A stretch of DNA of 64,000 nucleotides from an uncultured Gammaproteobacteria bacterium (GTDB lineage: Bacteria; Pseudomonadota; Gammaproteobacteria; Steroidobacterales; Steroidobacteraceae), in the NCBI GenBank assembly GCA_963827615.1, contig CAWHCA010000003.1:13367-77366 (forward strand). The letters are read 5' to 3'. Positions 11,079-29,298 of this stretch are shown piece after piece. The notes under the pieces are model-generated. The model was not told where the DNA came from, did no database searches, and saw only the letters and a list, made by a program, of their open reading frames with translations. Position 1 is the stretch's first letter; each line of letters starts with the position of its first letter. Position numbers and translations under genes: made by a program.

Positions 11079-11215
11079 CGTGCCTGAACCCCGTCCTGTA
11101 GGCGGAGTCTAGCGTGCGGGCGGGGGTCTGCCGTGACCTCGTGCACCAGGCTGTGACCCGCCTCGCAGTTCGAGTCCGGGCGAGGCCTGGTCGGCAAAGG
11201 GTTGTCAAGTATCCG

Positions 11216-11240
11216 TATATGGGACATACTGTCCCATATA
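11216..11240. promoter_or_regulatory. AT-rich palindromic operator candidate TATATGGGACA-tac-TGTCCCATATA overlapping the start codon
   Basis: Perfect 11-bp arms with a 3-bp spacer, in an otherwise GC-rich region. A -35-like TTGTCA lies at 11202-11207, and a -10-like CATACT at 11225-11230 sits inside the palindrome. Both candidate ATGs (11219, 11240) lie in the arms. Confidence 0.4.
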
Positions 11241-13512: not shown

Positions 13513-13589
13513 CCGGAGTTCCGGGGTAAAGACGGGCCTGCAATGACGGGTCCGATACCGATCAGTACCGAGCTGTGCAGAGGTGTGAG

Positions 13590-15626: not shown

Positions 15627-15669
15627 CAGGATCGACTAACAGAACCCCGGACCTCCCGGTCCACCCCTT

Positions 15670-15705
15670 GGGCGGGACGGCGCAAGCCTCCCGCCCTATT
15701 TTTTT
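15670..15705 (+). terminator. Rho-independent terminator after the lipoprotein operon
   Basis: GGGCGGGA-(11 nt loop)-TCCCGCCC followed by TATTTTTTT. The T-run also encodes the last codons (KK-stop) of the convergent solute-binding gene. Confidence 0.7.
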
Positions 15706-17270
15706 GTCTCGAAGCGCAGGTGACGCGTCGCGAGGTGACCGAGGGGGTTGACCGCGACGCCTGCGACGTCCGGCTTGGCGAGCAGCTTCGAGACGCGATG
15801 AAACACCGGGATGACCGGCGAGTCCGCGAGCAGCCACTGTTCGGCAAGGACCATGGATGACGCACGCTGCGCTGCGTCCCGCGCAAGCCGCGATTCGGCC
15901 AGCAGCGCGTCGTAGCGGGCGCTCTTGTATCCCGGAACGTTCTGCGCGTGGCCGGACTCGAACAGTGCGAGAAACGCCTCGGCGTCGATGAAGTCGGCGG
16001 ACCAGCCGAACCGTAGCAAATCGCAATCACCCGGATCCTCGCGCAGCGCGAGGTACGCCTTCCACTCGATCTCGACCAGCTCGACTTCGACACCGAGCGT
16101 GCGACGCCATTGATCGACAAGTGCGACCGCGGTTCGGTGGTGATTGGCACTCGCGTCCGAGCACAGTCGCAACCGATCAGGCGCGGCACCGCGTCCGCGT
16201 GCTTCGCGCCACAGCCTTCGCGCCTCGTCGATACGCTCAACCGCGGGAAGCGGAGTCCACGTGAACTGCGCCGGCGTGTAACCGGGTACGCCTGCGGGAA
16301 CCCAACCGTAGGCGGGTTGCTCTCCCGCGCCGGTCACTTGCCGGGTGATCTGCCCGCGATCGACTGCCATGGATAGCGCCACGCGCGCATCCCGGTCACG
16401 CATGCGCGCAAGATTGAACGCGTAGCCATACGTGCTCAGGTACGGCGCAATGTGCAGTTCATCGGCAAGGTTCTGCTGCAACCAGCTGACCTGCGTGTTC
16501 GGCACTTCGCTCGTAACGTCGAGCGCGCCCGAGCGGTAGAGGTTCAGCTCGGTGTTGAGGTCCTCGAGTGTCAGGTAGGTCACGCGCTCGACCGCCACCG
16601 CCTCCGCGGCGTGATAGTGGGGGTTGCGCTCGAGTTCGATCTTCTCGCCTGGACGACGCAGGAGTAGCCGGTAAGGGCCGTTGCCGATGAAGGATGCCTC
16701 AGCGCTGGCCGCGAATCGTTGCGGCGCGGCGACCGGCAGCGCCAGCACGGCAGGAAGGTAGGGCACAGCGCGCGCCATCTCGAGCACGACGGTCCGGGAA
16801 TCCGTCGCGTGGACGGAAGTGACGTCTTGCAGCAACGCGGAATAGGGTGCCTGCGAGTCCTTAACTCTTGCTGCATCCAGGCCAGCGACAAACTGCGCGG
16901 CGTTCAGCGGGGTGCCGTCGGACCAGCGCAGATTCTCACGCAACGTGAAGGTCCAGGTGCGGCCGTCGTCCGACACGCTCCATGTCTCCGCCGCTCCGGG
17001 GACGATGCGGCCGTCGGCAGCCTCCGTCGTCAGTCCTTCGAACAGTTCCTGTGACAGCGCCAGTGCCGGGTTGTCCTCGGCGAGGCGTGGGTCGAGAGTG
17101 GCGGGTTCGCCGCCCAAGGCGCGGGTGAGGGTACGGTGCGGGTCCGCAGTCACAGGCAGGTTTGCGTCCTGTGGGGATGGATGCCGATCCGATCCGCAAG
17201 CGGCGATCGCCAGCGTTACCAGTGCTACGACGCAGCGCAATAAGGCTGTCAACGTGTTTCCCGTCTGCAT
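15696..17270 (-). CDS. ABC transporter substrate-binding protein, family 5 (peptide/nickel type), lipoprotein
   Basis: I chose the ATG at 17270 (MQTGNTLTALLRCVVALVTLAIAAC lipobox). The body is OppA/DppA-like. No cognate permease or ATPase genes are adjacent. Confidence 0.8.
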   Translation of the reverse strand: MQTGNTLTALLRCVVALVTLAIAACGSDRHPSPQDANLPVTADPHRTLTRALGGEPATLDPRLAEDNPALALSQELFEGLTTEAADGRIVPGAAETWSVSDDGRTWTFTLRENLRWSDGTPLNAAQFVAGLDAARVKDSQAPYSALLQDVTSVHATDSRTVVLEMARAVPYLPAVLALPVAAPQRFAASAEASFIGNGPYRLLLRRPGEKIELERNPHYHAAEAVAVERVTYLTLEDLNTELNLYRSGALDVTSEVPNTQVSWLQQNLADELHIAPYLSTYGYAFNLARMRDRDARVALSMAVDRGQITRQVTGAGEQPAYGWVPAGVPGYTPAQFTWTPLPAVERIDEARRLWREARGRGAAPDRLRLCSDASANHHRTAVALVDQWRRTLGVEVELVEIEWKAYLALREDPGDCDLLRFGWSADFIDAEAFLALFESGHAQNVPGYKSARYDALLAESRLARDAAQRASSMVLAEQWLLADSPVIPVFHRVSKLLAKPDVAGVAVNPLGHLATRHLRFETKK

Positions 17271-17410
17271 GGATGCGAAGTCCGAGGCATATGGTCGTCG
17301 CAAATCAGGCGTATGACAAAAAGTGTGTCGGGTAAGGTCCGAACTGCGTTTTGACAGAACCCGGCAGGCTGGGTGACTATCCCCGCCGCTGTGCGTTTGG
17401 AGCGCGACGA

Positions 17411-19636
17411 ATGGATTCCGAGTTCAAGTACCGCGCTTTCATAAGTTACAGTCACAGCGACGAGTCCTGGGCCAAGTGGCTGCACAAGTCGCTCGAGACG
17501 TACTCGGTGCCGAAGCGCCTCGTCGGCAGACAGACCGAGTTTGGCCCCGTGCCTGCACGATTCGCGCCGGTGTTTCGTGACCGGGACGAACTTGCGACGG
17601 CGACCAACCTGGGCGAGACCCTGACGCGAGCACTGGAGCAGTCTGCGTTCCAGGTGGTGATCTGTTCGCCGGCCGCCGCGAAGTCACGTTGGGTGAACGA
17701 GGAAATCCTCGCATTCAAGCGCCTGGGCCGCGAGCACCGGATTTTTTGTCTGATCGTAGGCGGTGAGCCGGGCGCGTCCCTTGTGGAAGCCACCACGGAG
17801 CAGGAGTGTTTCCCGAACGCGCTCATCTATACGATGGGTGCGGACGGACAACTCACCTCGACGCGCGGCGAGCCGATCGCCGCCGACGCCCGGCCACAGA
17901 AGGACAGTAAGCAGGACGTCCGGCTGAAGCTGGTCGCCGGGATGCTCGGCGTCGGTCTCGACGAGTTGAAGCAGCGCGAGGCCCACCGGCGGCAGCGGCG
18001 CATGATGGCGCTGGTCACTGCGTCCGTCGTCGGTATGGCGATCACCTCGGGCCTTGCCGCCGCCGCCTGGATCGCCCGCAACCAGGCCGAGCGCGAGCGC
18101 GTCCGCGCGGAGACCGAAGCCGAAACCGCCCGGCAGACCACGAACTTTCTCGTCGGCCTGTTCGCCGTCTCCGACCCGAACGAGGCTCGCGGCAACTCCA
18201 TCACCGCGCGCGAGATCCTCGACAAGGGCTCGCAGCGCATCAAGTCGGAATTGGTCACGCAGCCGGCGATCCAAGCCACGCTGATGGAGACCATGGGGAC
18301 GGTGTACACGAGCCTGGCGCTTTACCCTCCGGCTGCGTCGCTGCTCGACAGCGCACTGCAGAAGCGTCTCGAACTCTATGGCGCGGACAGCCTCGAGGTG
18401 GCGCAATCGGCGGAGAAGCTCGGCGGGGTGCTGACGCTGACCGCGGAGTACGACAAAGCGGAGTTGATGTACCGCAAGGCGCTGGGCTTGCGACAGCAAC
18501 AGCTCGGACCCGAGCACGTCGACATCGCGCGCAGCCAGTACCTGCTTGCCGATCTTCTCTCTCGCAAGGGCGAGTACGATGCGGCCGAGCCGTTGTTTCG
18601 CGAGTCGCTGGCGATGCGGCGCAAGTTGCTCGGCGGCAACACCGTCGAGGTGGCCAAGAGCCTCGAAGGGCTGGCGATGAATCTCTATAACCAGGGCAAA
18701 TACGACGAGGCCCTGCCCGCGATGCGACTTGCGGTTGAGTTGCAGAGGGGACTGCACCATGCGCCGCACACCGACCTGGCCGAGGCGCTGAGCAATCTCG
18801 GCCTGGTGCTGAGCGACATGGGTGAGTACGGCGAGTCTGAAAAGCTGTATCGGGAGTCGTTGCAGATGAAACGCGTCCTGCTGGGTGACACGCACCCGGA
18901 GATCGCGCTGGGCCTCAACAACATCGCATACGCTTTGACCGACCAGAAGAAATACGACGAGGCGGCGTCGATGTACCGTCAGGCCATAGCCATGCAGCAC
19001 AAGCTGCTCGGCGACGACCACCCGGACATTGCGGCCGCGCTGAACAACCTGGCATTCGTGCTGCACGACAAGGGCGATGCCGAGGGTGCCCGCAGGATGA
19101 TGCAGCAATCGCTCGACATGTACCGACGCACGGTCGGGTCCGAGCATCCGTCGATTGCCCGCGGCATGGGCAACCAGGCGATGTGGCTGATGCAGGCGGG
19201 TGATTACAAGTCGGCCGAACCTCTGTTGCGCGAGGCGCTGCAGATGCGCAGAAAGCTGCTCGGCAATGAGCACACGGACGTCGCCGGCACGCTGACGCTG
19301 CTCGCCAGTCTGCTGGTCGAGACCGGGCGGTTCGAGGAGGCGCGGGCGGCCGCCGCGGAAGCCCGGGCGATTTGCCTGCCCGCCCTGGGGGCGGCCCACT
19401 GGCGGACGGCGGCCGCCACCAGCACCGAAGGCGCGGCGTTGGTCGGTTTGGGGCAAACCGCGCAGGGTGCCAAGTTGTTGATCGAGGGGTTGGCCGCGCT
19501 GCGCGCCGACACGGGGGCATTGCCCTTTTTCCTGGACAACGCGACCCGCTGGGCTGAGGAATACAGCCGCAAGCGGACCGGCGCGCAGGATGCGGTCAAG
19601 CAAACTGCCATGTTGCTAGGCAACAAGGACCGCTGA
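17411..19636 (+). CDS. TIR domain - single TM - TPR repeat protein
   Basis: ATG at 17411. The N-terminal TIR signature is YRAFISYSHSDESWAKWL...FRDRDEL...VVICSPAAAKSRWVNEEILAF. One hydrophobic helix follows (MMALVTASVVGMAITSGLAAAAWIA), then about 9 TPR_12-like repeats (...YDEA...A..L...LG..HP..A..LNNLA...). Confidence 0.85.
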   Translation: MDSEFKYRAFISYSHSDESWAKWLHKSLETYSVPKRLVGRQTEFGPVPARFAPVFRDRDELATATNLGETLTRALEQSAFQVVICSPAAAKSRWVNEEILAFKRLGREHRIFCLIVGGEPGASLVEATTEQECFPNALIYTMGADGQLTSTRGEPIAADARPQKDSKQDVRLKLVAGMLGVGLDELKQREAHRRQRRMMALVTASVVGMAITSGLAAAAWIARNQAERERVRAETEAETARQTTNFLVGLFAVSDPNEARGNSITAREILDKGSQRIKSELVTQPAIQATLMETMGTVYTSLALYPPAASLLDSALQKRLELYGADSLEVAQSAEKLGGVLTLTAEYDKAELMYRKALGLRQQQLGPEHVDIARSQYLLADLLSRKGEYDAAEPLFRESLAMRRKLLGGNTVEVAKSLEGLAMNLYNQGKYDEALPAMRLAVELQRGLHHAPHTDLAEALSNLGLVLSDMGEYGESEKLYRESLQMKRVLLGDTHPEIALGLNNIAYALTDQKKYDEAASMYRQAIAMQHKLLGDDHPDIAAALNNLAFVLHDKGDAEGARRMMQQSLDMYRRTVGSEHPSIARGMGNQAMWLMQAGDYKSAEPLLREALQMRRKLLGNEHTDVAGTLTLLASLLVETGRFEEARAAAAEARAICLPALGAAHWRTAAATSTEGAALVGLGQTAQGAKLLIEGLAALRADTGALPFFLDNATRWAEEYSRKRTGAQDAVKQTAMLLGNKDR

Positions 19637-19742
19637 GAAACCGTTTTGGGCCAGGCCTTTCGTCACAATCCGATCGCGACGCTCTGCCCTCCCGGTTGAC
19701 ATAATCGTCCGGCCTCGGCCGCGGCAGTGCAAGCGACTGAAT

Positions 19743-19758
19743 TGTGATACGTTTCACA
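19743..19758. promoter_or_regulatory. CRP/CLP-type binding site candidate TGTGA-N6-TCACA
   Basis: TGTGATACGTTTCACA is an exact match to both half-sites of the CRP consensus core. It lies about 145 nt upstream of the first lectin gene start. Confidence 0.4.
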
Positions 19759-19895
19759 CATTCAAGACGCTTGCGCTCGGTCTGGCCTTGAAGCGCCGCC
19801 TGCAAGTCGAGCCGGCCGAGCAATTCGACTCGCTTTAAGAATAAGAAAGACACCGCAAGGGTCCCTGGCCTTGCGCGCACGCAGGAGTGAACAAG

Positions 19896-21380
19896 GTGGG
19901 TAAGGGAATCAGTCTGTTTGCCGGTCTGACCGCATTGTTTGCCATGGGTTCGGCGGGAGCGGCTTGTCCCGGCACGCCGACGCAGGCAGATACCAATCCG
20001 GAAACCGGGCACTATTTTGAGGTCTACGCGGCCACGGGCATCACCTGGGACGATGCCAAGGCGTGCGCCGATGCCAGCACCAGCAACGACATTCCCGGGC
20101 ACCTTGCGACCATTACGTCGTCCAGCGAGGACGAATGGGTCGATAGTTTGAGAAACAGCTCAGGGCTCGGCCAGGTCTGGGTTGGCGGTTACCAGGTGCC
20201 GGGCTCGACGGAGCCGGGTGGCGGGTGGCGTTGGGAAAACAACGAGGGCCCCTTTTCAGGCGTGAACAACGACCCCGGTCTGCCTGGATACACGAACTGG
20301 GCCGCTGCCGAGCCGAACAATGACGGGGGCGTCGAGAGCCACCTGACGCTTGGTCGGTACGGCCTGGGCGGCGGCTGGAACGACGAAGGCAGTGCTCTCG
20401 GTTCAATCGGCGGCTTCATCGTCGAGTACGATGTGCCGCGCACCGCCGAGTGCACTGTCGGTGTCGATTGCCAGACTATCAACGGCCAGACGCTGCAGTT
20501 TCCGCCGGGATCGTTCCAGGCCGGCGACAAGGTCAAGTTCACGGCCTATGAGTTCACGGATCCGCGCGTCGTCGCCGGCAAGTGCACGACACGTGGGCCA
20601 CTGACATTGTTCACGGATCCCGCCTTCGGATCCAATGCGCAGCTGAAGATTCCGCCGTACCTGTGCGGTTCGCCCAGGTTTGTCGTCGTCAAGGTGGACT
20701 CGAGCGATCTCGACATACTGAAGGGGACCGTGCTGGTCGAGAACCAGACCACTGAGGTGGTCCTGCCGACCAACCTGTACAAGTGCTTTGACCCGATCAT
20801 TGGCAGCGCGCTAGAGGGTGTGGATTCGCGGTGGAAAAAGGATCCGCAGTACCAGGACGTGGTCGTGTGGCAGTCCACCAACCCGCTCGACATGCTCGAA
20901 AATATGACCACGACTCCGCTCGACTTCGTTGGCGCTGCGACCGAAGCCACGAATGGATGTGGCAGTACCGTGGCGAAGGTCCGCGGCGCGTCCTATTTCA
21001 TCGTCGGCATGCACATCGATTTCGGCCCGGGCTACGAGTTGTCGTCCAACTCGCTGGCGAACTACGGCAAATTCGTGAGCCTGACCCGGTACAAGCTGAC
21101 GCTACTGCGCAAGTCTATTGTGGCGGCGAGGTCGGCGGGATCACTCAGACCGGCCGTCTCCACGGCGATGGACGCATTGATCGCGCTCGCGATCTACCGG
21201 CTCGACCGGGGCAATCCCGCGGGCGCGTTGGTCCAGGTCAGGCAGTTCCTCTGGCTCGCCAACGCGGCGACATACACGCCAATAGCTGGCGCCAACTACA
21301 ACGGTGATCATGTCATGCGCGGCGAGAACATTGCGTTCATGCTGCGGGTCAAGGTCATACCCTACCCGGTCGCGCCTTGA
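19896..21380 (+). CDS. Secreted C-type lectin domain protein, paralogue 1 (CTLD + ~300-aa Cys-rich domain of unknown function)
   Basis: The GTG at 19896 lies 8 nt after AGGAG; the ORF-track start at 19887 overlaps the RBS. It has a signal peptide. CTLD landmarks are GHLATITSSSEDEWV, VWVGG, WRWENNEGPF, NWAAAEPNNDGG (EPN) and GGGWNDEG (WND). Confidence 0.8.
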   Translation: MGKGISLFAGLTALFAMGSAGAACPGTPTQADTNPETGHYFEVYAATGITWDDAKACADASTSNDIPGHLATITSSSEDEWVDSLRNSSGLGQVWVGGYQVPGSTEPGGGWRWENNEGPFSGVNNDPGLPGYTNWAAAEPNNDGGVESHLTLGRYGLGGGWNDEGSALGSIGGFIVEYDVPRTAECTVGVDCQTINGQTLQFPPGSFQAGDKVKFTAYEFTDPRVVAGKCTTRGPLTLFTDPAFGSNAQLKIPPYLCGSPRFVVVKVDSSDLDILKGTVLVENQTTEVVLPTNLYKCFDPIIGSALEGVDSRWKKDPQYQDVVVWQSTNPLDMLENMTTTPLDFVGAATEATNGCGSTVAKVRGASYFIVGMHIDFGPGYELSSNSLANYGKFVSLTRYKLTLLRKSIVAARSAGSLRPAVSTAMDALIALAIYRLDRGNPAGALVQVRQFLWLANAATYTPIAGANYNGDHVMRGENIAFMLRVKVIPYPVAP

Positions 21381-21453
21381 ATGAGCCACGGACCGGGCAT
21401 GCGGCTCGCCGCAGTCCACGGTCCCTGGCCTTGCACGCACGAAGGAGTGGAGA

Positions 21454-23007
21454 ATGAATATGGACAAGGGAATCGGTCTATTTGTCGGCTTGGCAGCGGT
21501 GTTTGCCATGGGGTCCGCGCAGGCCGCGTGCCCCGGAACTCAGGTGCTGGTGTATTCGGACATCAATGACGCCACCGGCCACGTTTTCGAGGTTTACAGG
21601 GCGAACGGGATTTCCTGGGCCGACGCGGCGGACTGCGCCGACAACATCACCACCACCGGCGCCACGGGGCACCTCGCAACCATCACGTCATCCAGCGAGA
21701 ACCAGTGGGTCATCGACTCCCTGTTGATCCCTTCGCTGACCACGTCGGTAGAAGTTCCCTCGCCGCTGACGCAAAGCCAGGTCTGGGTGGGCGGTGTGCA
21801 AGACGCGTCGGCGACGGGAATCGGCGATGGCTGGCGTTGGGTGAATAGCGAAGGGCCGTTTTCCGGCACGAACAACAATCCCGCGATGCCGGGCTTCACC
21901 AATTGGGCCGGCAGCGAGCCGAACGATGGTGACGGTTTCGAGAACGGGCAAGAGAATCATTTGACGGTCGGCCGGTACCCCGGGAATTACTATGTCTGGA
22001 ACGACGAAGGTGCCGCTCCGGGCTCGATTGGTGGATTCATCGTCGAATACGACGTGCCGCGTACGGCCCAGTGTACCGTCGGTGTTAATTGCGAAACCAT
22101 CGACGGTCAGACGCTGGTTTTTCCGACTGGATCGTACACGACCGGCGACACGATCAAGTTCACGGCCTATGAATTCAACGATCCGCGCGTCGTCGCCGGC
22201 AAGTGCACGACGCGGGCGCCGCTGACGTTGTTCATGGATACTGCCGCTTTCGGGTCCAATGCGCAGCTGAGAATCCCACCGTACCTTTGCGGTTCCCCCA
22301 AGTTTGTCGTCGTCGCGGTGGACTCAAGTCAGCTCGACATCCTCAAGGGCACCGTGTTCGTCGAAAACCAGACGACCGAGAAGGTGCTGCCCAGTAACCT
22401 TTACAAGTGTTTTGACCCGATCCTCGGCAGCCTGCTGACGGGGGATTCGCGTTACTCCCCGGATCCGCAGTACCAGGACGTGGTCGTGTGGCAATCCACG
22501 AATCCCACAGGCATGCTCGAAAACGCGACCACGGCGCCGCCCGACTTCGTTGGCGCAGCGACTGAAGCCACGAACGGTTGCGGCAGCACCGTCGCGAAGG
22601 TCCGGGGTGCTTCCTACTTCGTGGTCGGCATGCACATCGACTTCGGTACAGGTTTCGAATATGCGACAAACCCGTTGCAGAACTATCAGCAGTTCGTCGC
22701 GTTGACCCAGTACAAGCTCTCGCTGCTACAGAAGTCCGTGGCCAATGCGCGATCGGTCGGCTCGGTGAAGAATCCGGACGGGCAGGCCATGGCCTCGCAG
22801 GTGAAGAACGCGATCAGCAAGCTCAACGCGGGTGATCCCGCCGGCGCGCTAACGTCGATCAACCAGTTCATCAACAAGGTGAATTCGTCCACGTACTACT
22901 TTCCCACGAGCGTGACGTTCAACTACAACGGCGATCACCTGATGCGCGGCGAGAACATCAGGTTCATGCTGCGGGTCAAGGTGATCCCCTACAAGCCAGT
23001 GCCTTAA
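21454..23007 (+). CDS. Secreted C-type lectin domain protein, paralogue 2
   Basis: Same architecture as paralogue 1: GHLATITSSSENQWV, VWVGG, WRWVNSEGPF, NWAGSEPNDGDG (EPN), YVWNDEG (WND). The 5' leader is duplicated too (GGTCCCTGGCCTTGC.CGCACG.AGGAGTG before both genes). Confidence 0.8.
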   Translation: MNMDKGIGLFVGLAAVFAMGSAQAACPGTQVLVYSDINDATGHVFEVYRANGISWADAADCADNITTTGATGHLATITSSSENQWVIDSLLIPSLTTSVEVPSPLTQSQVWVGGVQDASATGIGDGWRWVNSEGPFSGTNNNPAMPGFTNWAGSEPNDGDGFENGQENHLTVGRYPGNYYVWNDEGAAPGSIGGFIVEYDVPRTAQCTVGVNCETIDGQTLVFPTGSYTTGDTIKFTAYEFNDPRVVAGKCTTRAPLTLFMDTAAFGSNAQLRIPPYLCGSPKFVVVAVDSSQLDILKGTVFVENQTTEKVLPSNLYKCFDPILGSLLTGDSRYSPDPQYQDVVVWQSTNPTGMLENATTAPPDFVGAATEATNGCGSTVAKVRGASYFVVGMHIDFGTGFEYATNPLQNYQQFVALTQYKLSLLQKSVANARSVGSVKNPDGQAMASQVKNAISKLNAGDPAGALTSINQFINKVNSSTYYFPTSVTFNYNGDHLMRGENIRFMLRVKVIPYKPVP

Positions 23008-23016
23008 GTAGGCGCC

Positions 23017-23052
23017 AGACAAAGCCCGTGACTCGCGGCACGGGCTTTGTCT
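23017..23052 (+). terminator. Hairpin terminator after lectin paralogue 2
   Basis: AGACAAAGCCCGTG-(8 nt)-CACGGGCTTTGTCT is a perfect 14-bp stem. Only a weak T-tract follows. Confidence 0.55.
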
Positions 23053-23104
23053 ATCTGAAGGTCCGGTGTGCTGGGGCGGCTAGCCCCGGCGTACCGGCGC
23101 AGAC

Positions 23105-24298
23105 GTGATCGGCGGCCGGCTCGACAAGCGACTGTACGGCGCCATGTTCCTGATGGCCACGAGCGCCATCGGCCCCGGCTTCATCACCCAGACGACTCAG
23201 TTCACCGCCCAACTCGGCGCGGCCTTCGCTTTTGCGATCCTGGTCTCGATCCTCATCGACGTCGCGCTGCAGTTGAACGTGTGGCGCGTGATCGGCGTGT
23301 CGGGATTGCGGGCGCAGGAACTCGGGAATAGCGTAGCGCCGGGCGTCGGGCATGTGTTCACGGTCTTCGTGGTGCTCGGTGGTTTCGTCTTCAACGTCGG
23401 CAATATCGCGGGCGCCGGGCTTGGTCTCGAGGCGCTGCTGGGACTCGAGCCGAAGTGGGGCGGGGCGGCTTCGGCTTTGCTGGCGATCGCGGTCTTTTTG
23501 TCGCGCCGGGCCGGAGTCACGATGGACCGGATCGTCGTCGTGCTCGGCTTCGTCATGATCGCGCTGACAGCGTACGTGGCCTTCGTCTCCCAGCCTCCGC
23601 TCGGCGCCGCGCTGCGTAACGCGGTGCTGCCCGAGCGAGTCGACTTCCTCGCGATCACGACGCTGGTCGGTGGCACGGTGGGCGGCTACATCACTTATGC
23701 CGGCGCGCATCGGCTGCTCGACGCCGGTGTGCACGGTCCTGACCGTGTGGCGGAGATTTCCCGGGCCTCAGTTATCGGCGTGCTGGTGACCGGCCTGATG
23801 CGTGTCCTGCTGTTTCTCGCCGTGCTCGGCGTGGTCGCGGCAGGCGTGCGGCTGGATCCGTCCAACCCAGCCGCCTCTGCCTTCGAGGCGGCCGCCGGCG
23901 GAGTGGGCAGGCGCGTGTTCGGCCTGATCCTGTGGGCTGCCGCAATCACCTCGGTCATCGGTGCTTCGTACACGTCGGTGTCGTTCCTTGTCGGCGCGTC
24001 GGCGCGGCTTGCGCGACGCCGGAGCATTCTCGTAGTGGCTTTCGTCGGCCTGTCGGCAACCGTGTACCTGATGGCGGGTGCGGCGCCTGTGCCACTGCTG
24101 GTGTTCGCGGGTGCCTTCAATGGCCTGATCCTGCCGATCGGCATCGCCGTCCTGCTGTGGGTGGCGATCCGCCGGCCCTATCTAATGGGCGGTTACGCCT
24201 ATCCCCGTCACCTTGCTGCGTTGGGTTTCGTGGCATGGCTGGTCACGATCTACCTTGGCTGGGAATCGCTCGACAGGCTGGCGACGCTGTTCATTTAA
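23105..24298 (+). CDS. Nramp-related membrane transporter (divergent; lacks the canonical DPGN motif)
   Basis: 397 aa with about 11 TM segments. The N-terminal segment MATSAIGPGFITQTTQF resembles Nramp-family TM1. Confidence 0.55.
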   Translation: MIGGRLDKRLYGAMFLMATSAIGPGFITQTTQFTAQLGAAFAFAILVSILIDVALQLNVWRVIGVSGLRAQELGNSVAPGVGHVFTVFVVLGGFVFNVGNIAGAGLGLEALLGLEPKWGGAASALLAIAVFLSRRAGVTMDRIVVVLGFVMIALTAYVAFVSQPPLGAALRNAVLPERVDFLAITTLVGGTVGGYITYAGAHRLLDAGVHGPDRVAEISRASVIGVLVTGLMRVLLFLAVLGVVAAGVRLDPSNPAASAFEAAAGGVGRRVFGLILWAAAITSVIGASYTSVSFLVGASARLARRRSILVVAFVGLSATVYLMAGAAPVPLLVFAGAFNGLILPIGIAVLLWVAIRRPYLMGGYAYPRHLAALGFVAWLVTIYLGWESLDRLATLFI

Positions 24299-24385
24299 CG
24301 GATACGGTGGGCGGCCCGCCTGCCGCCCGCCGCCGATCGCAGCAATCGACGCGCCCGGTGCGGTGGATGGGTATCATCCCCGCGC

Positions 24386-26188
24386 ATGGCGACCGCACCC
24401 GAGCACGCAGCGCCCGCTGAGACTCCCTTCACCGCCGGTCCGGACCGCCGGACGGGCGCGCGCAGCTACGCCGTTCCTTTCATCGTGGCCGTCACGGGCC
24501 ATCGCGACCTCGTCCCCGACGAGATTCCGATCATCCGGTCCCGCGTGCGCGACTGCCTGTTCAGCCTGCGCTACGAGTACCCCAGCCGCATCATCGTCGT
24601 GATGTCCTCGCTGGCCGACGGCGCGGACCGCCTCGTGGCGGAAGAGGCGTTGCAGCTCGGCATGCCGCTCAGCGTCGTCTTGCCGATGCCGCGGGTGATG
24701 TACGAGGAAGACTTCACGCCGGAGTCCCTCGAGCAGTTCGCGGAACTCTGCGACAAGGCCGCAGAGATCTTTGAACTGCCCCTGCTGCCGGGTGCGACGC
24801 CACGGTCCATCGCGGAAAGTGGGCCGAACCGCACCCGCCAGTATGCCCAGCTCGGCGTGTTCCTGAGCGCGCACTGCCACGTGCTGCTCGCGCTCTGGGA
24901 TGGCAAAGGCAGTGACCTTCTTGGCGGCACGGCGGCCACGATCCAGTTCCATCACCACGACGTGATGCCCGGCTACACGCCGCGCGTGACCTCGAGCAAG
25001 CTCAACCTGACCGAAGACGAGAGCGACCTCGTTTATCACATCGTCTGTTCGCGGGACCGGCCGGACGGCGAGCCTGCGCCCGGGTTGAAGCCCTTGGAGA
25101 CGTCATGGTTCACGACGGACGAGGAGAATCCGCGGACGGCCGAGATTTCCGCGCGGCACCGCAAGGTGTTCGAGTACACCAACGAGTTCAGCCGCGAAGC
25201 GCAGAACAACGCGGCCGCGATCGACAAGGAACGCTACTCGCTGTTGACCGGCGAGCAGGCAGCGACGTTGCCGGCCGGTCTCTGGGACATCAACCAGGCG
25301 TTCTGCGCGGCCGACTGGCTGGCCATCCACTACCAGAAGAAGGTCGTGAAGACGCTGCAGGGGGGCCACGTGGCAGCCTTCCTGACCGCCGTGGGCTACC
25401 TGACGTACACCGACCTGCTATCCACGCCGTTGATGATCGGCGGCATCATCTCGTTGATGCTTTTCGCCGTCGTGAACAACGCACTCGCGGTGCGCGGCAG
25501 CTGGCAACGCAAGTACCTCGACTATCGCACGCTGGCGGAAGGCCTGCGGGTCCAGTTCTACTGGGCTGCGGCCGGCGTCACCAGCGGCAGCGTTTCGAAG
25601 TACGCGCACGACAACTTCCTGCAGATGCAAGACACCGAGCTTGGCTGGATCCGCAACGTCATGCGCGTCGCCGGCATGGAGTGCGACGTGGCGCCAAACC
25701 TCGATCCGCATGGCGTGCAGTTCGCGGTGCAGGAGTGGATCGGCGACGACAAGTCCGGCCAGCTCGGTTATTACCGCAAGAAGTCCGCCCAGCGCATCGT
25801 CGAGCACGACTCCACGTTGCGCATCGGGCGGCTCGGGATCTGGACCACGATCATCGCGCTCACGACATTGCTGTTCGTTGGTTCGGCGCTATCGGACGAA
25901 GTGCGGACCCCGGTCGTCTACCTGATGGGTATCGTCATGCTGATGGTGGGCGTGCGGCAGGCGTACGCAAAGACCACGGCCGAGGCCGAACTGATCAAGC
26001 AGTACGAGTTCATGCATCGCATCTTCCGCAACGCGCGCAAGCGTATCGACGATGCCGACAACGACGGTGACAAGCGGCGTATCCTGAAGATCCTCGGGGA
26101 TGCCGCGCTGGAAGAACACGCGCAGTGGATCCTGATCCACCGCGAGCGGTCGATCGACGAGAAGGAGGGGATCAAGCTCGGCGGCTGA
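24386..26188 (+). CDS. SLOG-like (LOG/YpsA-type Rossmannoid) domain fused to two 2TM SLATT-like modules
   Basis: The N-terminal ~200 aa carry FIVAVTGHRDL, SSLADGADRLVAEEAL and a LOG-like glycine motif LLGGTAATIQF. Two hairpin TM pairs follow (about aa 335-380 and about aa 480-525). The second pair is preceded by GQLGYYRKKSAQRI, typical of SLATT/DUF4231-type modules. Confidence 0.6.
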   Translation: MATAPEHAAPAETPFTAGPDRRTGARSYAVPFIVAVTGHRDLVPDEIPIIRSRVRDCLFSLRYEYPSRIIVVMSSLADGADRLVAEEALQLGMPLSVVLPMPRVMYEEDFTPESLEQFAELCDKAAEIFELPLLPGATPRSIAESGPNRTRQYAQLGVFLSAHCHVLLALWDGKGSDLLGGTAATIQFHHHDVMPGYTPRVTSSKLNLTEDESDLVYHIVCSRDRPDGEPAPGLKPLETSWFTTDEENPRTAEISARHRKVFEYTNEFSREAQNNAAAIDKERYSLLTGEQAATLPAGLWDINQAFCAADWLAIHYQKKVVKTLQGGHVAAFLTAVGYLTYTDLLSTPLMIGGIISLMLFAVVNNALAVRGSWQRKYLDYRTLAEGLRVQFYWAAAGVTSGSVSKYAHDNFLQMQDTELGWIRNVMRVAGMECDVAPNLDPHGVQFAVQEWIGDDKSGQLGYYRKKSAQRIVEHDSTLRIGRLGIWTTIIALTTLLFVGSALSDEVRTPVVYLMGIVMLMVGVRQAYAKTTAEAELIKQYEFMHRIFRNARKRIDDADNDGDKRRILKILGDAALEEHAQWILIHRERSIDEKEGIKLGG

Positions 26189-27400
26189 TCAGTTCTTCTT
26201 CGGTGGCACCTTCGAATACTCGCCGCGCCCCTCGAGCACGGGATCCGTCGACAGGTTCCAGCCCAGGTTGCGCGCTTCGTTCGGGTCGACGGGTTCGCTC
26301 GAGATCCAGACGACGAGGCGCATGCCGTCGGTGATGTAGGGGTCGCCCGTGAGGTTGTAGCGCGGTTTTTCATGCGTGGCTTCGCCGACGCCGCGCACGA
26401 AGGCGAACCGGCTGACGGCGTCGTGGTGCAGCAGGCTGTGCAGCAGGTATTCGCGCGACTCGTCGATGACCGGGTCGATCACGTGCGTCGTCAGCGTGGG
26501 CGACTTCGTGGTCCCCTTGACGCCGATGTCGCGGCTGACCTGGCCGAACCAGACCGGACGGCCCTCGCTGCGGAAAGGGGCCAGCCACAGGCGCATGTGG
26601 TTGCGCTGGGCAATGGTCGCCCTGCCGCGCTGCAACGCGACGTCCTGCTTGCGGCCGAAGGCGTGCAGCGAGCTGACTGGAGCGGTCAGGAACGACTTTT
26701 CCGCAATTGCCGCGCCCACCATGCGCCGCACGCTGTCTGCGGTGATCGCCTCGGTGAAACTCCAGCCACTCGCGGCAAGTGCAGAGATGACTTCTTCGCC
26801 TGCGCCGACGATGACGACGTTGAGTGGATCGCCTTCGCCGTCACCGGCCGTGCTCGTCGTGCAGCACGGCAACTCCCGCAGTCGTGCGCGAAGCTCATCG
26901 GGCGCGAGATCCGGAAATTCGTTCACCTTCTCGTAGAGCGCCTTGAGCGACGATCGCTCGTAGTCGAAGCCCTCCGTGGGCAGCATCACGGCGAACCGCA
27001 TGCGGATGCCTCGCTGGTTGCCCGTCATGCGGATGTCGACGAAGCGGCCTCCACGCATGTGCGACGCATAGACGTAGCCTTCATTCGTGGACCTGGCCGC
27101 GGAGAAAAAGGGCAGGGCATGCTGGCGGAACCGGTCCGCGTGGGCGGCACGCTGGTCCTTCGGCACCTTCTTCAGCGTGACCAGCGCAACCTCGTCGGCC
27201 GAGTAGTAGTCGGGATCGATCGAGACCGGCAGCAACCAGTAATCGTGGTCACTGGTGTTTTCGATGCGCAGCCAGATCGGCTGGATGCCGGCTGCGGCCA
27301 GCGGCACGCCGAAGAATTTCGCTGCCTGTTCCTCGGTCGGGATCGCAAGATGGACGGTGACGCCGTCCTGCTGCAGTGTCCGCAGGCGTCCGAGATGCAA
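26189..27400 (-). CDS. LssY_C-domain protein (as called, from a TTG; the N-terminal signal peptide appears to be in another frame)
   Basis: The C-terminal half resembles the LssY C-terminal domain (GDPLNVVIVG...ALAASGW...RNHMRLW). A signal-peptide-like ORF start (ATG 27596, MTCWSWPRRASSATASVLAIAAVAL) joins this frame only after a 1-nt shift near 27515-27525. Confidence 0.6.
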   Translation of the reverse strand: MHLGRLRTLQQDGVTVHLAIPTEEQAAKFFGVPLAAAGIQPIWLRIENTSDHDYWLLPVSIDPDYYSADEVALVTLKKVPKDQRAAHADRFRQHALPFFSAARSTNEGYVYASHMRGGRFVDIRMTGNQRGIRMRFAVMLPTEGFDYERSSLKALYEKVNEFPDLAPDELRARLRELPCCTTSTAGDGEGDPLNVVIVGAGEEVISALAASGWSFTEAITADSVRRMVGAAIAEKSFLTAPVSSLHAFGRKQDVALQRGRATIAQRNHMRLWLAPFRSEGRPVWFGQVSRDIGVKGTTKSPTLTTHVIDPVIDESREYLLHSLLHHDAVSRFAFVRGVGEATHEKPRYNLTGDPYITDGMRLVVWISSEPVDPNEARNLGWNLSTDPVLEGRGEYSKVPPKKN

Positions 27401-27720
27401 GGGCAGGCCGGCGGTCTCGGCGTCGATCGCCGCGGCCGACTGGACGCCTAGGGGAGTCTGCGCCTCGGCGCTCGCTGCCGCGGCCGGAACCTCCGCAGCG
27501 GCGCCAGCCAGCGTCAGGCATCAGTGCGACAGCAGCTATCGCGAGCACGCTCGCGGTGGCGCTCGACGCGCGCCGTGGCCAGGACCAGCATGTCATGCGT
27601 TTGAATCCCCAGGGCGCTGGCGATCCTTGGGGCAGGGATACCGGCCCGTGCCTGTCGCTCGCGCATGAGTTGGACTGTAACTTATATTCCGGGGATCGCG
27701 GTCCGGACCGATCATCGACA

Positions 27721-29298
27721 ATGCGTATTCCATGCAGGTTACTGCTCGCAGCGGCCACGGCGCTGATGACAGGCTGCGCGTCATCCCCGCCAGCCGATGC
27801 GCCGGCAGGAACCAGCGCACCCAGGGCATTCGTCGAGGAAGCCAGTGCCACGTCGGTGCTGGGGCCGGATAGCGTATTCGTCGGCAGTCCGTACGAGGAA
27901 GTCGGTGCGTCGGGGCTCTTTCCGCCGCGCGGCCCCGCCGACTGCAGTCTCGCGGTGCTCGCCAATGGCGAGGATTCCCTCGCCGTGCGCCTGGACGTGC
28001 TGAAGGCGGCGCAGAAATCGATCCGCATCCAGGCGCTCGTGTTCAAGGGCGACGAATCCGGTCTGCGCGTCGCGGAGATCCTGAAGCAGAAGAAGGCCGC
28101 GGGTCTCGACGTACGAATCATCGTCGACGCATTCTCGAATCCGTGGTTGCAGACCCAGTGGATGTATTTCGACCTGAAGCAGCACGGCATCGAGGTCGAA
28201 GGGTACGAGGCCATGGCGTTGCAGTGGCTCAACGAGGTGCCCGTGCCGCACCTCACGCCGCACTACGACCCGCAGCAGCCGGACAAGCGGTTCCACGAGA
28301 AGATGTGGATCGTCGACGGGGAAACGGATGCCGCCGTGGCGGTGACCGGCGGCCTCAACATCGGCAACGAGTATTTTCGCGCCAACCCGGCCGATCCCGA
28401 CGCCACCTGGCGCGACCAGGACGTGGTCGTGCGCGGCGCGATCGTGCGCGACCTGGTCACCGCATTCGACCGCAATTTCGATTACTTCGTCGGCGTCAAG
28501 AAGAGCCGCGGCATCTTCAATACCAACCTGTACTGGGACGCGACTCGCCACTTGCTCGACAAGACCGGCAAGGTGCCGGTGAAGTTCACGACGAATCCCG
28601 ACGTGGCGGCGCACGTGGCCGGGATCGAGGCGCGCCGGCCGGCGCTCGCGTATTCGGGCGCGACTTGCCGGTTTTTCCAGAGCCGCCCCCGATTCAGGGA
28701 AACCTACATTCAGCAGGCCTACGTCAAGCTGATCGAGCGCGCGAGGTCCGAGGTACTGATCGCGAACGCGTACTTCGTGCCGACTGCAACGATCAAGCTC
28801 GCACTGCAGGACGCGGCGAGGCGCTGCGTGGCCGTGCGGCTGATCTCCAACAGCCCCGAGACCAACGATCTGCCTGAGATCAGCCTGGTGGGACGCGGGC
28901 ATTACAAGGACCTGCTGGCGGTGAACCAGGCGCCCGAGGTGGTCGCCTGCAAGAGCGCCGAGCCGGGGCTGCGAATCTGGGAATGGGTGGGGCAGGCGGC
29001 CACCGAGGCCGAGCGCCGGCAGGGCACGATGCACTCCAAGTACGCCGTGATCGACGGCCGCCGCAGCCTGGTCGGTTCCTACAATCTCGACCCGCGCAGC
29101 GAGAAACTGAACAGCGAGTCGGCGTTGGTTTTCGAACAGCCCGAGTTGTCAGGCCAGCTGCGCGATGCGTTCTTCAGCAACGACCTCAGTTACAGCCGCG
29201 AGGTGACGCCGGCGCAGGCGGCGGAATTCGAGGCACCCGAGGACGTAATCGAACGCTTCCGCAAGTCGATCGGGCACCTGTTCGAGCAGCACTTGTAA
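27721..29298 (+). CDS. Phospholipase D / cardiolipin-synthase-like lipoprotein with two HKD motifs
   Basis: I chose the ATG at 27721 (MRIPCRLLLAAATALMTGC lipobox). HKD motif 1 is FHEKMWIVDGE and HKD motif 2 is MHSKYAVIDGRRSLVGSYNLDPRS. Confidence 0.85.
   Translation: MRIPCRLLLAAATALMTGCASSPPADAPAGTSAPRAFVEEASATSVLGPDSVFVGSPYEEVGASGLFPPRGPADCSLAVLANGEDSLAVRLDVLKAAQKSIRIQALVFKGDESGLRVAEILKQKKAAGLDVRIIVDAFSNPWLQTQWMYFDLKQHGIEVEGYEAMALQWLNEVPVPHLTPHYDPQQPDKRFHEKMWIVDGETDAAVAVTGGLNIGNEYFRANPADPDATWRDQDVVVRGAIVRDLVTAFDRNFDYFVGVKKSRGIFNTNLYWDATRHLLDKTGKVPVKFTTNPDVAAHVAGIEARRPALAYSGATCRFFQSRPRFRETYIQQAYVKLIERARSEVLIANAYFVPTATIKLALQDAARRCVAVRLISNSPETNDLPEISLVGRGHYKDLLAVNQAPEVVACKSAEPGLRIWEWVGQAATEAERRQGTMHSKYAVIDGRRSLVGSYNLDPRSEKLNSESALVFEQPELSGQLRDAFFSNDLSYSREVTPAQAAEFEAPEDVIERFRKSIGHLFEQHL

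Follow-up and report, generated by a model that had tools for sequence, protein, structure and literature searches.

Effectors that bear a SLOG domain are activated by the products of TIR proteins in types I, III and IX of Thoeris; in the validated type VII, which combines TIR and SLATT, the SLATT effector ThsH is switched on by canonical cADPR (bioRxiv 10.64898/2025.12.03.692087). The same 2025 preprint lists 'TIR + SLOG and 4TM' as a candidate, unvalidated Thoeris type (Tables S1/S2), with 'SLOG and 4TM' examples in Streptomyces sp. GKU 895 and Ca. Nitrospira nitrosa. When two 'SLOG and 4TM' operons were tested in E. coli, neither protected against phage.

In the window, the whole 64,000-nucleotide stretch of DNA analysed here, an initial annotation had singled out a TIR gene and a SLOG-membrane gene as a split, Thoeris-like pair in new architectures. 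These genes stand first and last in a single conserved cluster of five genes (17411-26188), which encodes, in order, a TIR-TM-TPR sensor, the lectins LecA and LecB, a protein of the Nramp fold and a SLOG-2xSLATT protein. As had been stated of the flagged pair, both genes lie on one strand; the whole cluster is on the + strand, with intergenic gaps of 250, 73, 97 and 87 bp, in gene order. The Thoeris-like pairing was supported by conserved linkage and by both domain assignments. The novelty is narrower than first described: the kind of system is known (Thoeris), 'TIR + SLOG and 4TM' being already a candidate type (bioRxiv 10.64898/2025.12.03.692087), and it is the present variant that is new.

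The surroundings had been described as an accessory patch, which they are not. Genes lptF and lptG lie ~11 kb upstream of the cluster, related genomes share the synteny of the locus, and the syntenic flanks consist of housekeeping genes (lptFG, cytochromes, pcnB-folK-panB). No known defence or mobile genes were found at this chromosomal site, no relatives were found on viral contigs, and PADLOC returned no Thoeris component, ThsA and ThsB included. Directly downstream, the module borders on an exopolysaccharide gene cluster. Metagenomes hold proteins 92% identical to the sensor, and the proteins in general are far more conserved than typical defence genes.

Domain architecture and predicted topology

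The putative sensor and signal generator (17411-19636) is a 741-aa protein whose start was placed at the ATG at 17411, in an ORF that opens at 17351. Its TIR assignment, made initially from sequence inspection, was confirmed with Pfam TIR_2 (E 6e-12, 46.5 bits against a cutoff of 28) and ThsB_TIR (E 2.7e-7). The domain, predicted to be cytoplasmic, occupies aa ~5-190 (17423-17980) and carries the invariant motifs AFISYSH, FRDRxEL, VICS, SxWxxEE and EPIAAD. Across the 22 orthologues of alignment A2, mean column identity was 75%, with W94, E97 and E98 of the SxWxxEE motif invariant; between families, TIR domains were 60-90% identical. A hydropathy scan placed a single hydrophobic helix, preceded by an RRQRR stretch, at aa 198-222 (18002-18076), between the TIR domain and a TPR_10/TPR_12 array (18410-19450; nine TPR_12 stretches, E 6e-99). 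The membrane-tethered TIR-TPR architecture that had been proposed is thus borne out.

Exactly one TM helix was found in 37/41 members of the sensor family. Mean net charge in family members was +3.2 on the N-side of this helix and +0.2 on the C-side, a positive-inside pattern that suggests a cytoplasmic N-terminus. In seven Woeseiaceae loci the TIR domain is replaced, on the N-side of the same helix, by a DUF4062-like part and an nSTAND1 NTPase. N-terminal signal-like hydrophobic segments were present in 18/19 Lec sequences and in 12/18 sequences of P805, which like Lec is a co-conserved partner. As the single helix, the charge pattern, the nSTAND1 swap and the signal-like segments agree, the TIR domain is predicted to lie inside the cell and the TPR array outside.

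The 600-aa putative effector (24386-26188) was modelled by AlphaFold with a pLDDT of 83 and a pTM of 0.84. Its N-terminal domain (aa ~30-245; 24473-25120) has a SLOG fold, as anticipated. The best Foldseek PDB matches were to SLOG-superfamily proteins (ShosA, DprA, MoCo carrier, TM1055 and the N-termini of TRPM2/TRPM4), and the GHRD, GxD, WxG and GGT columns were invariant in alignment A1. The LOG motif reads PGGxGTxxE; its Glu is absent from the sequence here, GGTAATIQF. Two membrane hairpins follow. The first, SLATT_3/DUF4231-like (aa ~299-395; 25280-25570), has model helices at 299-340, 347-371 and 373-395 and matched NCBIfam SLATT_3 at aa 305-387 (E 0.054). The second, SLATT_1-like, with C-terminal helices (aa ~458-587; 25757-26146), matched Pfam SLATT_1 over the entire profile model (E 0.046).

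No curated model, whether SLOG, SLATT or other, came up to threshold on the window protein. Of the profile searches proposed beforehand, TIR_2 was above cutoff, while SLOG, SLATT and DUF4231 were sub-threshold. The initial reading of a SLOG-like domain fused to 2TM modules was nevertheless sustained by the Foldseek matches, by family-wide profile matches and by hhalign. Sub-threshold matches recurred among 40 family members (DUF4231 in 34, SLATT_3 in 32, SLATT_1 in 15 and YAcAr in 19). A distant homologue on a Caballeronia plasmid reached 30.9 bits for DUF4231, above the Pfam cutoff of 24.7, and its N-domain aligned to the family of the window protein with an hhalign probability of 98.8% (E 6e-17). 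A further homologue, from locus L139, matched SLATT_1 with E 4.5e-5.

LecA (19887-21380) is a predicted secreted C-type lectin with a signal peptide, a CTLD, a beta-sandwich and a 4-helix bundle. Its AF2 model (pLDDT 82.7) matched the mannose receptor CTLD, lithostathine, CL-K1/CL-11 and dectin-1 in Foldseek (E 3e-6 to 1e-2). E142-P143-N144, E150 (+8) and W164-N165-D166 are invariant, and the neighbourhood of LecA to the sensor gene is conserved. LecB (21454-23007) is a tandem paralogue of LecA, with 66% identity; the EPN/WND sugar-binding motifs are intact in both. Judged by sequence identity to the window in locus L011 (Lec 57%, SLOG 90%, TIR 90%), the lectin evolves much faster than either TIR or SLOG. 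The Nramp-fold membrane protein (23105-24298; Pfam Nramp E 8e-20), as read from its sequence, has neither of the canonical metal-binding motifs, DPGN and MPH. Its gene occurs in 19-25 loci and takes various places with respect to the SLOG gene; it is retained in Steroidobacteraceae-type loci despite changes of order and is absent from Woeseiaceae loci.

Linkage of the sensor and SLOG genes

Co-occurrence of orthologues had been set beforehand as the test by which the pairing could be refuted. For 80 GTDB species-representative loci centred on the SLOG gene, together with the window (81 loci), all ORFs were clustered without prior labels. The TIR-TM-TPR family emerged as the top non-self family and the most frequent real neighbour (43/81 loci). 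When analysis was confined to the 46 species-level loci in which 7 kb or more flanked the SLOG gene on each side, the sensor gene was found within 5 kb in 28. All SLOG-centred sensor genes lay ≤4.9 kb away on the same strand, and the 5-10 kb shell held none. In an independent, TIR-centred metagenome scan, a SLOG gene was found within 6 kb in 38/80 loci, the remaining 42 all having too little two-sided flank to exclude one by the criterion used. These data strongly support co-localisation.

At least six arrangements of the pair were seen, often with the two genes side by side: SLOG->TIR (6-40 bp between them), TIR->SLOG, TIR->Lec->SLOG, TIR->P805->SLOG, SLOG->Nramp->TIR, and a divergent order with the two genes on opposite strands. 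Linkage persists where every other flanking gene differs. The system is not split, as had been suggested, the intervening lectin and Nramp-fold genes being conserved members of a same-strand cluster. The original caveat that the flagged genes are not adjacent holds for the window but not for many relatives, and the conserved linkage supports coupling. The linkage also extends to SLOG homologues of 26-43% identity (L151, L160, L164 and L166) and to the divergent 505-aa SLOG-4TM protein of L139. On the Caballeronia plasmid, the SLOG-DUF4231 gene is followed by genes encoding a TIR_2 and a WD40 protein. A gene of this SLOG subtype also stands third in the TIR-caspase operons of pTi and pBS72.

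In the remaining 18 well-flanked species, no sensor lay within 7-10 kb of the SLOG-4TM gene, whose neighbours there were unrelated and mostly on the opposite strand. Conversely, sensor and Lec pairs occur without a SLOG gene in L006 and L007, L110 has no SLOG gene, and P805->TIR loci have none in between. Between identical flanks, the sensor and lectin cassette is absent in L066 and L074 and present in L058, L063 and L069, and extra sensor (and lectin) copies lie beside or away from the SLOG gene in L009, L006 and L007. Of 599 candidate stretches drawn from the genomes of species representatives, at least 581 contained the SLOG gene. The SLOG-4TM gene is resident at a conserved chromosomal site, beside which sensor and lectin genes are gained and lost.

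Proposed mechanism and alternative readings

In view of the domains identified, the topology predicted and a linkage that survives reshuffling of gene order, the module probably follows Thoeris-type signal and effector logic with an outward-facing input. Each exported lectin would use a canonical Ca2+ site to bind a glycan of the mannose/GlcNAc/fucose type. The extracytoplasmic TPR array may read this glycan event, directly or via the lectin, whereupon the sensor would cluster. The cytoplasmic TIR domains, brought together, would turn NAD+ into an ADP-ribose-derived messenger, which the SLOG domain of the 600-aa protein would bind in the cytoplasm. The two SLATT hairpins might then open or assemble into a membrane-permeabilising structure, leading to depolarisation, growth arrest or death. 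The identity of the cue is conjectural, and the response may be abortive anti-phage defence or a reversible physiological one. Because the module is chromosomal, strongly conserved and outside any defence island, an anti-phage role is putative.

These last properties lend some weight to the same parts and relay serving a vertically inherited envelope or environment-sensing pathway with a reversible outcome, in which a glycan cue would lead, through a TIR messenger, to SLOG-gated ion flux. Such a pathway could report on biofilm or exopolysaccharide state, cell-cell contact or predators. The high conservation, with the SLOG gene in nearly all candidate stretches, the housekeeping flanks, the lack of defence-island neighbours and viral relatives, the exopolysaccharide cluster immediately downstream and the 'SLOG and 4TM' operons without defence in E. 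coli (bioRxiv 10.64898/2025.12.03.692087) would all fit. We consider it possible but rather unlikely, since cassette presence and absence between identical flanks, extra sensor copies and fast lectin evolution are conflict-like, and characterisation of SLATT and TIR domains has to date been confined to conflict systems.

It is improbable that the flagged genes adjoin through shared regional ancestry only, the TIR-TM-TPR protein and lectin forming a self-contained system with TIR as NAD+-depleting effector and the SLOG-4TM protein answering another nucleotide. Sensor and Lec pairs without a SLOG gene, and the SLOG genes that stand alone, would be expected in that case, and many bacterial TIR domains are NADase effectors (bioRxiv 10.64898/2025.12.03.692087). 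Against it, closeness is kept across shuffled orders and orientations with all other flanking genes different, reaches distant homologues and a betaproteobacterial plasmid, gives way to no sensors at all in the equally long 5-10 kb shell, and in L164 takes the form of a minimal two-gene operon bracketed by opposite-strand genes. Slightly less probable still is a LOG-like or YpsA-like SLOG enzyme on a mere membrane anchor that makes, trims or destroys what TIR produces, for instance as a sink that sets a threshold: the superfamily includes N-glycosidases, processing roles are predicted by Aravind's group (PMC9503650), small standalone homologues of the subtype occur in TIR-caspase operons, where a caspase is already the effector, and the invariant GHRD, GxD and GGT could be catalytic, but the LOG Glu is missing, the fusion to two SLATT modules is kept across thousands of family members, and SLATT is an effector domain in the validated type VII Thoeris and CBASS systems.

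Comparison with known systems

The 'SLOG and 4TM' candidate likewise has a TIR gene beside a gene for a SLOG and four-TM effector, the effectors being likened by description. Its TIR sequences are by eye unlike the window TIR, and neither a secreted partner nor a TM-TPR fusion is mentioned for it. Type VII Thoeris (ThsB TIR and ThsH) shares a TIR signal generator and a SLATT membrane effector. [quoted passage not shown] With type I (ThsB and the SIR2-SLOG effector ThsA; 3'cADPR) the common element would be a TIR product sensed by an effector SLOG domain. The window effector has no SIR2 and would use membrane helices rather than NAD+ depletion as output; its SLOG fold is nearest to DprA and ShosA, ThsA being absent from the top 50 Foldseek matches.

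Animal receptors and channels offer analogies only, with homology implied no further than the individual domains. Toll-like receptors also combine a repeat-array ectodomain, a single TM and a cytoplasmic TIR, but the window ectodomain is TPR rather than LRR and its TIR presumably acts as an enzyme and not as a scaffold. C-type lectin receptors similarly use an EPN/WND lectin as glycan reader. TRPM2, an ADP-ribose-gated channel, has a SLOG-fold N-terminus, but its six-TM TRP pore differs from the SLATT membrane part here. Lastly, STAND/nSTAND conflict systems (Aravind group, PMC7159879) join effector-like N-domains, including TIR types, to TPR_10/12 arrays that act as sensors. The module shares this layout, and its Woeseiaceae variant bears the DUF4062-like part and nSTAND1 where the TIR domain otherwise lies. 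The window protein is without the NTPase, and a TM helix separates its N-domain from the TPR array, so that the repeats are predicted to be placed outside the cell.

Domain architecture of the sensor and effector proteins

Analysis of the gene at 17411-19636 (+) bore out the initial annotation of a TIR-domain protein. The open reading frame spans 17351-19636, with the likely ATG at 17411, and encodes a 741-aa product, hereafter the sensor, on which the Pfam models TIR_2 (46.5 bits against a cutoff of 28, E = 6e-12) and ThsB_TIR (31.3 bits against 21.2, E = 2.7e-7) scored above their curated cutoffs. A long TPR_10/TPR_12 array was also identified with Pfam (E = 6e-99), separated from the TIR domain by one hydrophobic helix at aa 198-222. 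Across 22 orthologues from several family labels, the TIR domain showed 75% mean column identity, with the motifs AFISYSH, FRDRxEL, VICS, SxWxxEE and EPIAAD invariant, as were residues W94, E97 and E98. We take the glutamates of the WxxEE motif to occupy the site of the catalytic Glu in TIR NADases, as placed through the SARM1 WxxxE motif.

Exactly one transmembrane (TM) helix was found in 37 of 41 sensors, with a mean net charge of +3.2 on its N-terminal flank versus +0.2 on its C-terminal flank. The positive charge on the N-side of a single TM helix predicts that the TIR domain lies inside the cell and the TPR array outside. In seven Woeseiaceae loci (L069, L073, L075, L080, L082, L085 and L087; for example L073:4711-8292), the TIR domain was replaced by a DUF4062-like domain (E = 2e-4, sub-threshold) and an nSTAND1 NTPase (E = 8e-96), while the TM-TPR body behind it was unchanged. 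These loci keep the downstream lectin and SLOG-4TM genes, indicating a domain exchange inside a fixed module. Since the nSTAND1 ATPase must be cytoplasmic, the swap supports the predicted topology of the TM-TPR body.

The 600-aa protein encoded at 24386-26188 (+), here termed SLOG-4TM, reached the threshold of none of the curated models in Pfam, NCBIfam and PADLOC. Weak, sub-threshold matches were to SLATT_3 (E = 0.054), SLATT_1 (E = 0.046), DUF4231 (E = 0.24-0.34) and YAcAr, a SLOG family. Structure prediction and family-wide scanning were therefore used. The AlphaFold model, built on 40 homologues (pLDDT 83, pTM 0.84), predicted an alpha/beta domain (aa 32-242) ahead of two long helical hairpins. 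Its best structured Foldseek matches in the PDB were ShosA and three DprA entries (probability 1.0), the MoCo carrier protein and TM1055 (0.98), and the N-termini of TRPM2 and TRPM4. By these matches the modelled N-terminal domain belongs to the SLOG superfamily (relatives LOG, DprA, YpsA and MoCo carrier), whose alpha/beta fold is Rossmann-like and has a Gly-rich loop behind strand 1. Its GHRD, GxD, WxG and GGT motifs are invariant. PDB sequence searches with the single N-domain and with the family profile yielded nothing useful.

When family members were scanned one by one, sub-threshold matches recurred to DUF4231 (34/40), SLATT_3 (32/40), YAcAr (19/40) and SLATT_1 (15/40). SLATT modules are two-TM hairpins with a flanking helix; the first hairpin resembled SLATT_3/DUF4231 and the second SLATT_1. 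A distant homologue on Caballeronia plasmid pSBC2-4, annotated as a 'DUF4231 domain-containing protein', exceeded the Pfam cutoff for DUF4231 (30.9 versus 24.7 bits), and its N-domain aligned with the SLOG-4TM family in hhalign (probability 98.8%, E = 6e-17). One homologue carries the NCBI annotation DUF1273. Structural models, family-wide matches and the Caballeronia homologue thus agree with the initial assignment of a SLOG/LOG-like domain joined to membrane 2TM modules: as modelled, the protein is a SLOG domain followed by two SLATT-like 2TM modules, with all soluble parts predicted to be cytoplasmic.

The SLOG-4TM family is large: grouping at 90% identity leaves over 3,228 clusters, and its profile retrieved 8,951 representatives (50% identity clusters) at E ≤ 1e-3. 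No Pfam model covers it, and a scan of viral contigs found no relatives. Some members reach 824-858 aa through a tandem SLOG duplication ahead of the 4TM part (proteins P0108, P0116, P0118 and P0361; L076:10001-12487, L125:14005-16485 and L158:3929-6388).

Linkage of the sensor and SLOG-4TM genes

In the window, the two genes belong to a cluster of five on the + strand: sensor, LecA (19887-21380), LecB (21454-23007), an Nramp-fold gene (23105-24298) and SLOG-4TM, with gaps of 250, 73, 97 and 87 bp. No convincing + strand terminator was found between them; a promoter/terminator scan of the cluster found nothing promoter-like, and terminator-like sites were no more frequent than expected by chance.

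Conservation of this arrangement was surveyed from both ends. GTDB species representatives contained at least 581 stretches encoding SLOG-4TM, of which the best 80 loci were taken with 10-kb flanks. Submitter labels were mostly of Gammaproteobacteria metagenome-assembled genomes (MAGs), with families including Steroidobacteraceae, Woeseiaceae, Nevskiaceae, Lysobacterales and Rhodanobacteraceae. All open reading frames of these loci and the window were clustered without prior labels. With antisense shadow frames set aside, the commonest neighbour family was TIR-TM-TPR (43 of 81 loci), followed by P805 (22), an unannotated family of approximately 800 aa, the lectins (20) and the Nramp-like family (19). 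Where at least 7 kb was available on both sides of the SLOG gene, a sensor gene was present in 28 of 46 loci. The sensor genes in this set always shared the strand of the SLOG gene and lay no more than 4.9 kb away; the equally long 5-10 kb shell contained none. On the cluster-based maps, the genes recognised between sensor and SLOG belonged to the Lec, P805 or Nramp-like families, with unclustered reading frames there as well in a few loci.

For the reverse survey, metagenome contigs were scanned with an alignment of the TIR domain only, giving 80 loci. A SLOG-4TM gene lay within 6 kb in 38; none of the remaining 42 had enough flank (2.5 kb upstream plus 5 kb downstream) to exclude one. Gene order varied considerably. 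SLOG preceded TIR with gaps of 6-40 bp in 21 loci, and TIR directly preceded SLOG in six. The order TIR-Lec-SLOG occurred in five loci, plus one in which SLOG was encoded on the other strand, and TIR-P805-SLOG in two; SLOG was upstream on the opposite strand in three. In the SLOG-centred set, L037 had the order SLOG-Nramp-TIR.

The linkage was kept where all other flanking genes differed, and extended down to 26-43% SLOG identity (L151, L160, L164 and L166), L164 being a bare two-gene operon between opposite-strand genes. At L139, a divergent 505-aa SLOG-4TM protein is followed by a TIR-TM-TPR gene and then a P805-like gene. On pSBC2-4 of Caballeronia sp. SBC2 (L168:7226-10480), the SLOG-DUF4231 gene is followed by genes for a TIR_2 protein of 539 aa and a large protein of WD40 repeats; this set would be the same relay, its sensor being a separate WD40 protein and not a fused TPR array. 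Encoded nearby is a TPR protein that carries a cyclic-nucleotide-biosynthesis GO term.

Gene proximity that is kept despite repeated rearrangement is a classic signature of functional coupling. As proximity is conserved here through repeated rearrangement, the sensor and SLOG-4TM genes are very probably functionally coupled. Co-localisation of orthologues, set beforehand as a test of the pairing, was thus found from both directions. Given the linkage evidence, chance juxtaposition of the TIR and SLOG-4TM genes was rejected. The lectin and Nramp-like genes between them are as initially described, the lectins being paralogous. The suggestion that the system is split did not hold: the intervening genes are recognised neighbours in a same-strand cluster, and the two flagged genes are directly adjacent in many relatives.

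The association is not universal. The SLOG gene occurred without a sensor in 18 of the 46 well-flanked species, where no alternative conserved partner was found, the neighbours being unrelated and mostly on the opposite strand. Woeseiaceae loci L066 and L074 share their flanks with L058, L063 and L069 and do not have the sensor-Lec cassette. Sensor-Lec pairs without a SLOG gene occurred elsewhere, at L006 and L007. SLOG-4TM is thus the resident gene, and it is the sensor cassette that comes and goes next to it.

The stretch had been read as accessory but is not an accessory island; the cluster sits in conserved chromosomal synteny, with lptFG upstream, exopolysaccharide genes downstream and cytochrome genes also in the flanks. 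PADLOC found no defence-gene neighbours in this lineage, giving only weak DrmC-like matches on a cardiolipin-synthase-like PLD protein. Downstream (26189-29298), a - strand LssY_C gene ends exactly at the SLOG gene end (0-bp gap) and overlaps the start of the gene for this two-HKD PLD protein, whose weak matches are to DISARM DrmC; the pair stands behind the module in the closest relatives only. An upstream block (11114-17303), syntenic in many Steroidobacteraceae loci, encodes a DUF6502 protein, a pair of DUF5666 proteins, of which one (13575-15626) is fused to PKD and cytochrome c domains, and, in the opposite orientation, a solute-binding protein of the SBP_bac_5 family.

Partner proteins and a candidate relay

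LecA and LecB are tandem paralogues (66% identical) with N-terminal signal-like hydrophobic segments. The LecA model (pLDDT 82.7) predicted a C-type lectin-like domain (CTLD), a beta-sandwich and a four-helix bundle. Foldseek matched the CTLD to mannose-receptor CTLDs, lithostathine, collectins CL-K1 and CL-11, and dectin-1 (E from 3e-6 up), and against viral structures returned unnamed CTLD-like matches only. The Pfam model Lectin_C fell just under its cutoff (20.3 versus 22.6 bits). E142-P143-N144, E150 and W164-N165-D166 were invariant in 39 homologues, a set that we take to be the canonical Ca2+-site-2 ligands of mannose-type C-type lectins. The predicted protein thus combines the CTLD fold and the site-2 ligands (EPN/QPD, E(+8), WND) expected for C-type carbohydrate recognition. 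Lectins diverge much faster than their partners: relative to the window, identities for SLOG, TIR and Lec were 90%, 90% and 57% at L011, and 94%, 88% and 68% at L023. G+C content was 0.61-0.62 across both lectin genes (20000-23000) against about 0.66 elsewhere, the window as a whole being about 66%.

In many modules the lectin's place is filled by the Cys-rich P805 family, as P805-SLOG-TIR or TIR-P805-SLOG (L027:7549-9963, L059:2795-5140, L139:12265-14154 and about 20 other loci). Of 18 members, 12 start with a hydrophobic segment resembling a signal peptide, and no member of the family matched Pfam. BLASTP found no C-terminal domain common to P805 and Lec; hhalign gave a weak hint of a C-terminal helical domain present in both (E = 0.057, probability about 1%).

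The product of the Nramp-fold gene matched Pfam Nramp over its full length (71.6 bits), while NCBIfam Nramp_1 scored 23 bits against a cutoff of 50. Nramp divalent-metal transporters carry the metal-binding motifs DPGN in TM1 and MPH in TM6. By eye, neither was found, and AIGPGF and YAGAHR stand at the presumed sites, making a metal-transport role doubtful. The gene is nevertheless kept inside the cluster in Steroidobacteraceae-type loci through several order changes.

The most likely working of the module, in which we place moderate confidence, is a relay from a TIR-made messenger through SLOG to SLATT permeabilisation. While the domain identities, the predicted topology and the linkage come from the data, the steps themselves we infer: the exported lectin would bind a glycan, and that this event, or the ligand itself, would be sensed by the extracytoplasmic TPR array, which would cluster. 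Juxtaposed cytoplasmic TIR domains could then convert NAD+ to an ADPR-derived messenger, to be bound by the SLOG domain, upon which the SLATT hairpins would permeabilise the inner membrane.

The output may be abortive anti-phage defence. Gain and loss of the sensor cassette, additional sensor-gene copies and the fast evolution of the lectin favour conflict of this kind. Against it, the chromosomal synteny between lptFG and the exopolysaccharide genes is conserved, conservation of the module is very high, and neither defence neighbours (PADLOC) nor viral relatives (viral contig scan) were found. Alternatively, the output may be a reversible physiological response.

A bolder reading of the TIR-SLOG-SLATT relay, which we offer tentatively and consider rather unlikely, is a bacterial pathway laid out like animal innate immune receptors, and the first outside-in one of Thoeris type. 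A secreted EPN-type C-type lectin and the extracytoplasmic TPR array of a single-pass receptor would detect a glycan cue outside the cytoplasm. The signal would pass to the cytoplasmic TIR enzyme, whose nucleotide product would gate a SLOG-headed membrane channel, in analogy with TRPM2. Such a pathway would be vertically inherited and core-like, spread across Steroidobacteraceae-, Woeseiaceae- and Lysobacterales-labelled gammaproteobacterial MAGs, and not a mobile defence island.

If the module does couple the relay to an outward-facing receptor and a secreted lectin, bacterial TIR nucleotide signalling could report events at or beyond the envelope, phage adsorption, foreign polysaccharide and cell contact being candidates, and the very large unannotated SLOG-4TM family would acquire a testable ligand and partner. 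The outside-in topology and lectin partner would surprise specialists.

Comparison with Thoeris systems

Precedents come from Thoeris: SLOG-bearing effectors are switched on by TIR products in types I, III and IX, as is the SLATT effector ThsH of type VII, the validated TIR and SLATT pairing, by canonical cADPR (Sorek-laboratory preprint, bioRxiv 10.64898/2025.12.03.692087). The module shares with Thoeris an effector gene that lies in the TIR operon and encodes a putative ligand-sensing domain, as a same-strand cluster here and by direct adjacency in many relatives, and a TIR protein that, on its invariant W94, E97 and E98, would carry the catalytic glutamate. In type I, ThsA is SIR2 fused to SLOG, whereas SLOG-4TM is without SIR2, which was not found in Pfam, NCBIfam or PADLOC.

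The nearest listed configuration is 'SLOG and 4TM', a candidate Thoeris type (Tables S1/S2); two operons representing it conferred no protection in E. coli (bioRxiv 10.64898/2025.12.03.692087). An extracellular or host-specific trigger would explain that failure. PADLOC called no Thoeris component in the module, and the enrichment beside known defence genes by which the Thoeris types were discovered was not seen in this lineage. The module was therefore not assigned to a numbered type.

On the Agrobacterium Ti plasmid pTiCFBP5877 (L169:3642-5483) and on B. subtilis pBS72 (L170:3629-5483), TIR-caspase operons, which are type IV Thoeris-like, have a third gene for a small standalone protein of 149-162 aa (hypothetical at NCBI) homologous to the SLOG domain of SLOG-4TM (about 26-31% identity, E = 3e-7 to 4e-7). 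This small protein may act as a sink for the signal or as a regulator.

The literature searched contained no description of a TIR domain fused to a TM helix and extracytoplasmic TPR array, an interchangeable DUF4062-nSTAND1 head, a conserved secreted partner (EPN/WND C-type lectin or P805), or a chromosomal, vertically inherited distribution of such a module. The initial proposal of a Thoeris-like pair in new architectures is supported by the co-localisation test, subject to three corrections: the genes do not form a split system, the stretch is no accessory island, and the architecture is not wholly without precedent. Linkage, domains and the predicted membrane tethering of the TIR-TPR protein agree with it, and TIR-TM-TPR and the lectin partner appear new; SLOG with 4TM beside TIR was already a listed candidate, and the pair falls within no numbered type. 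In the literature covered, the Thoeris systems that have been characterised work in the cytoplasm, where infection is detected by a soluble TIR protein that signals from within. We file the module as one that works like Thoeris yet lies outside every numbered type: the relay from TIR to SLOG/SLATT is kept, and a predicted membrane-spanning receptor, outward-facing repeat array and secreted lectin are added.
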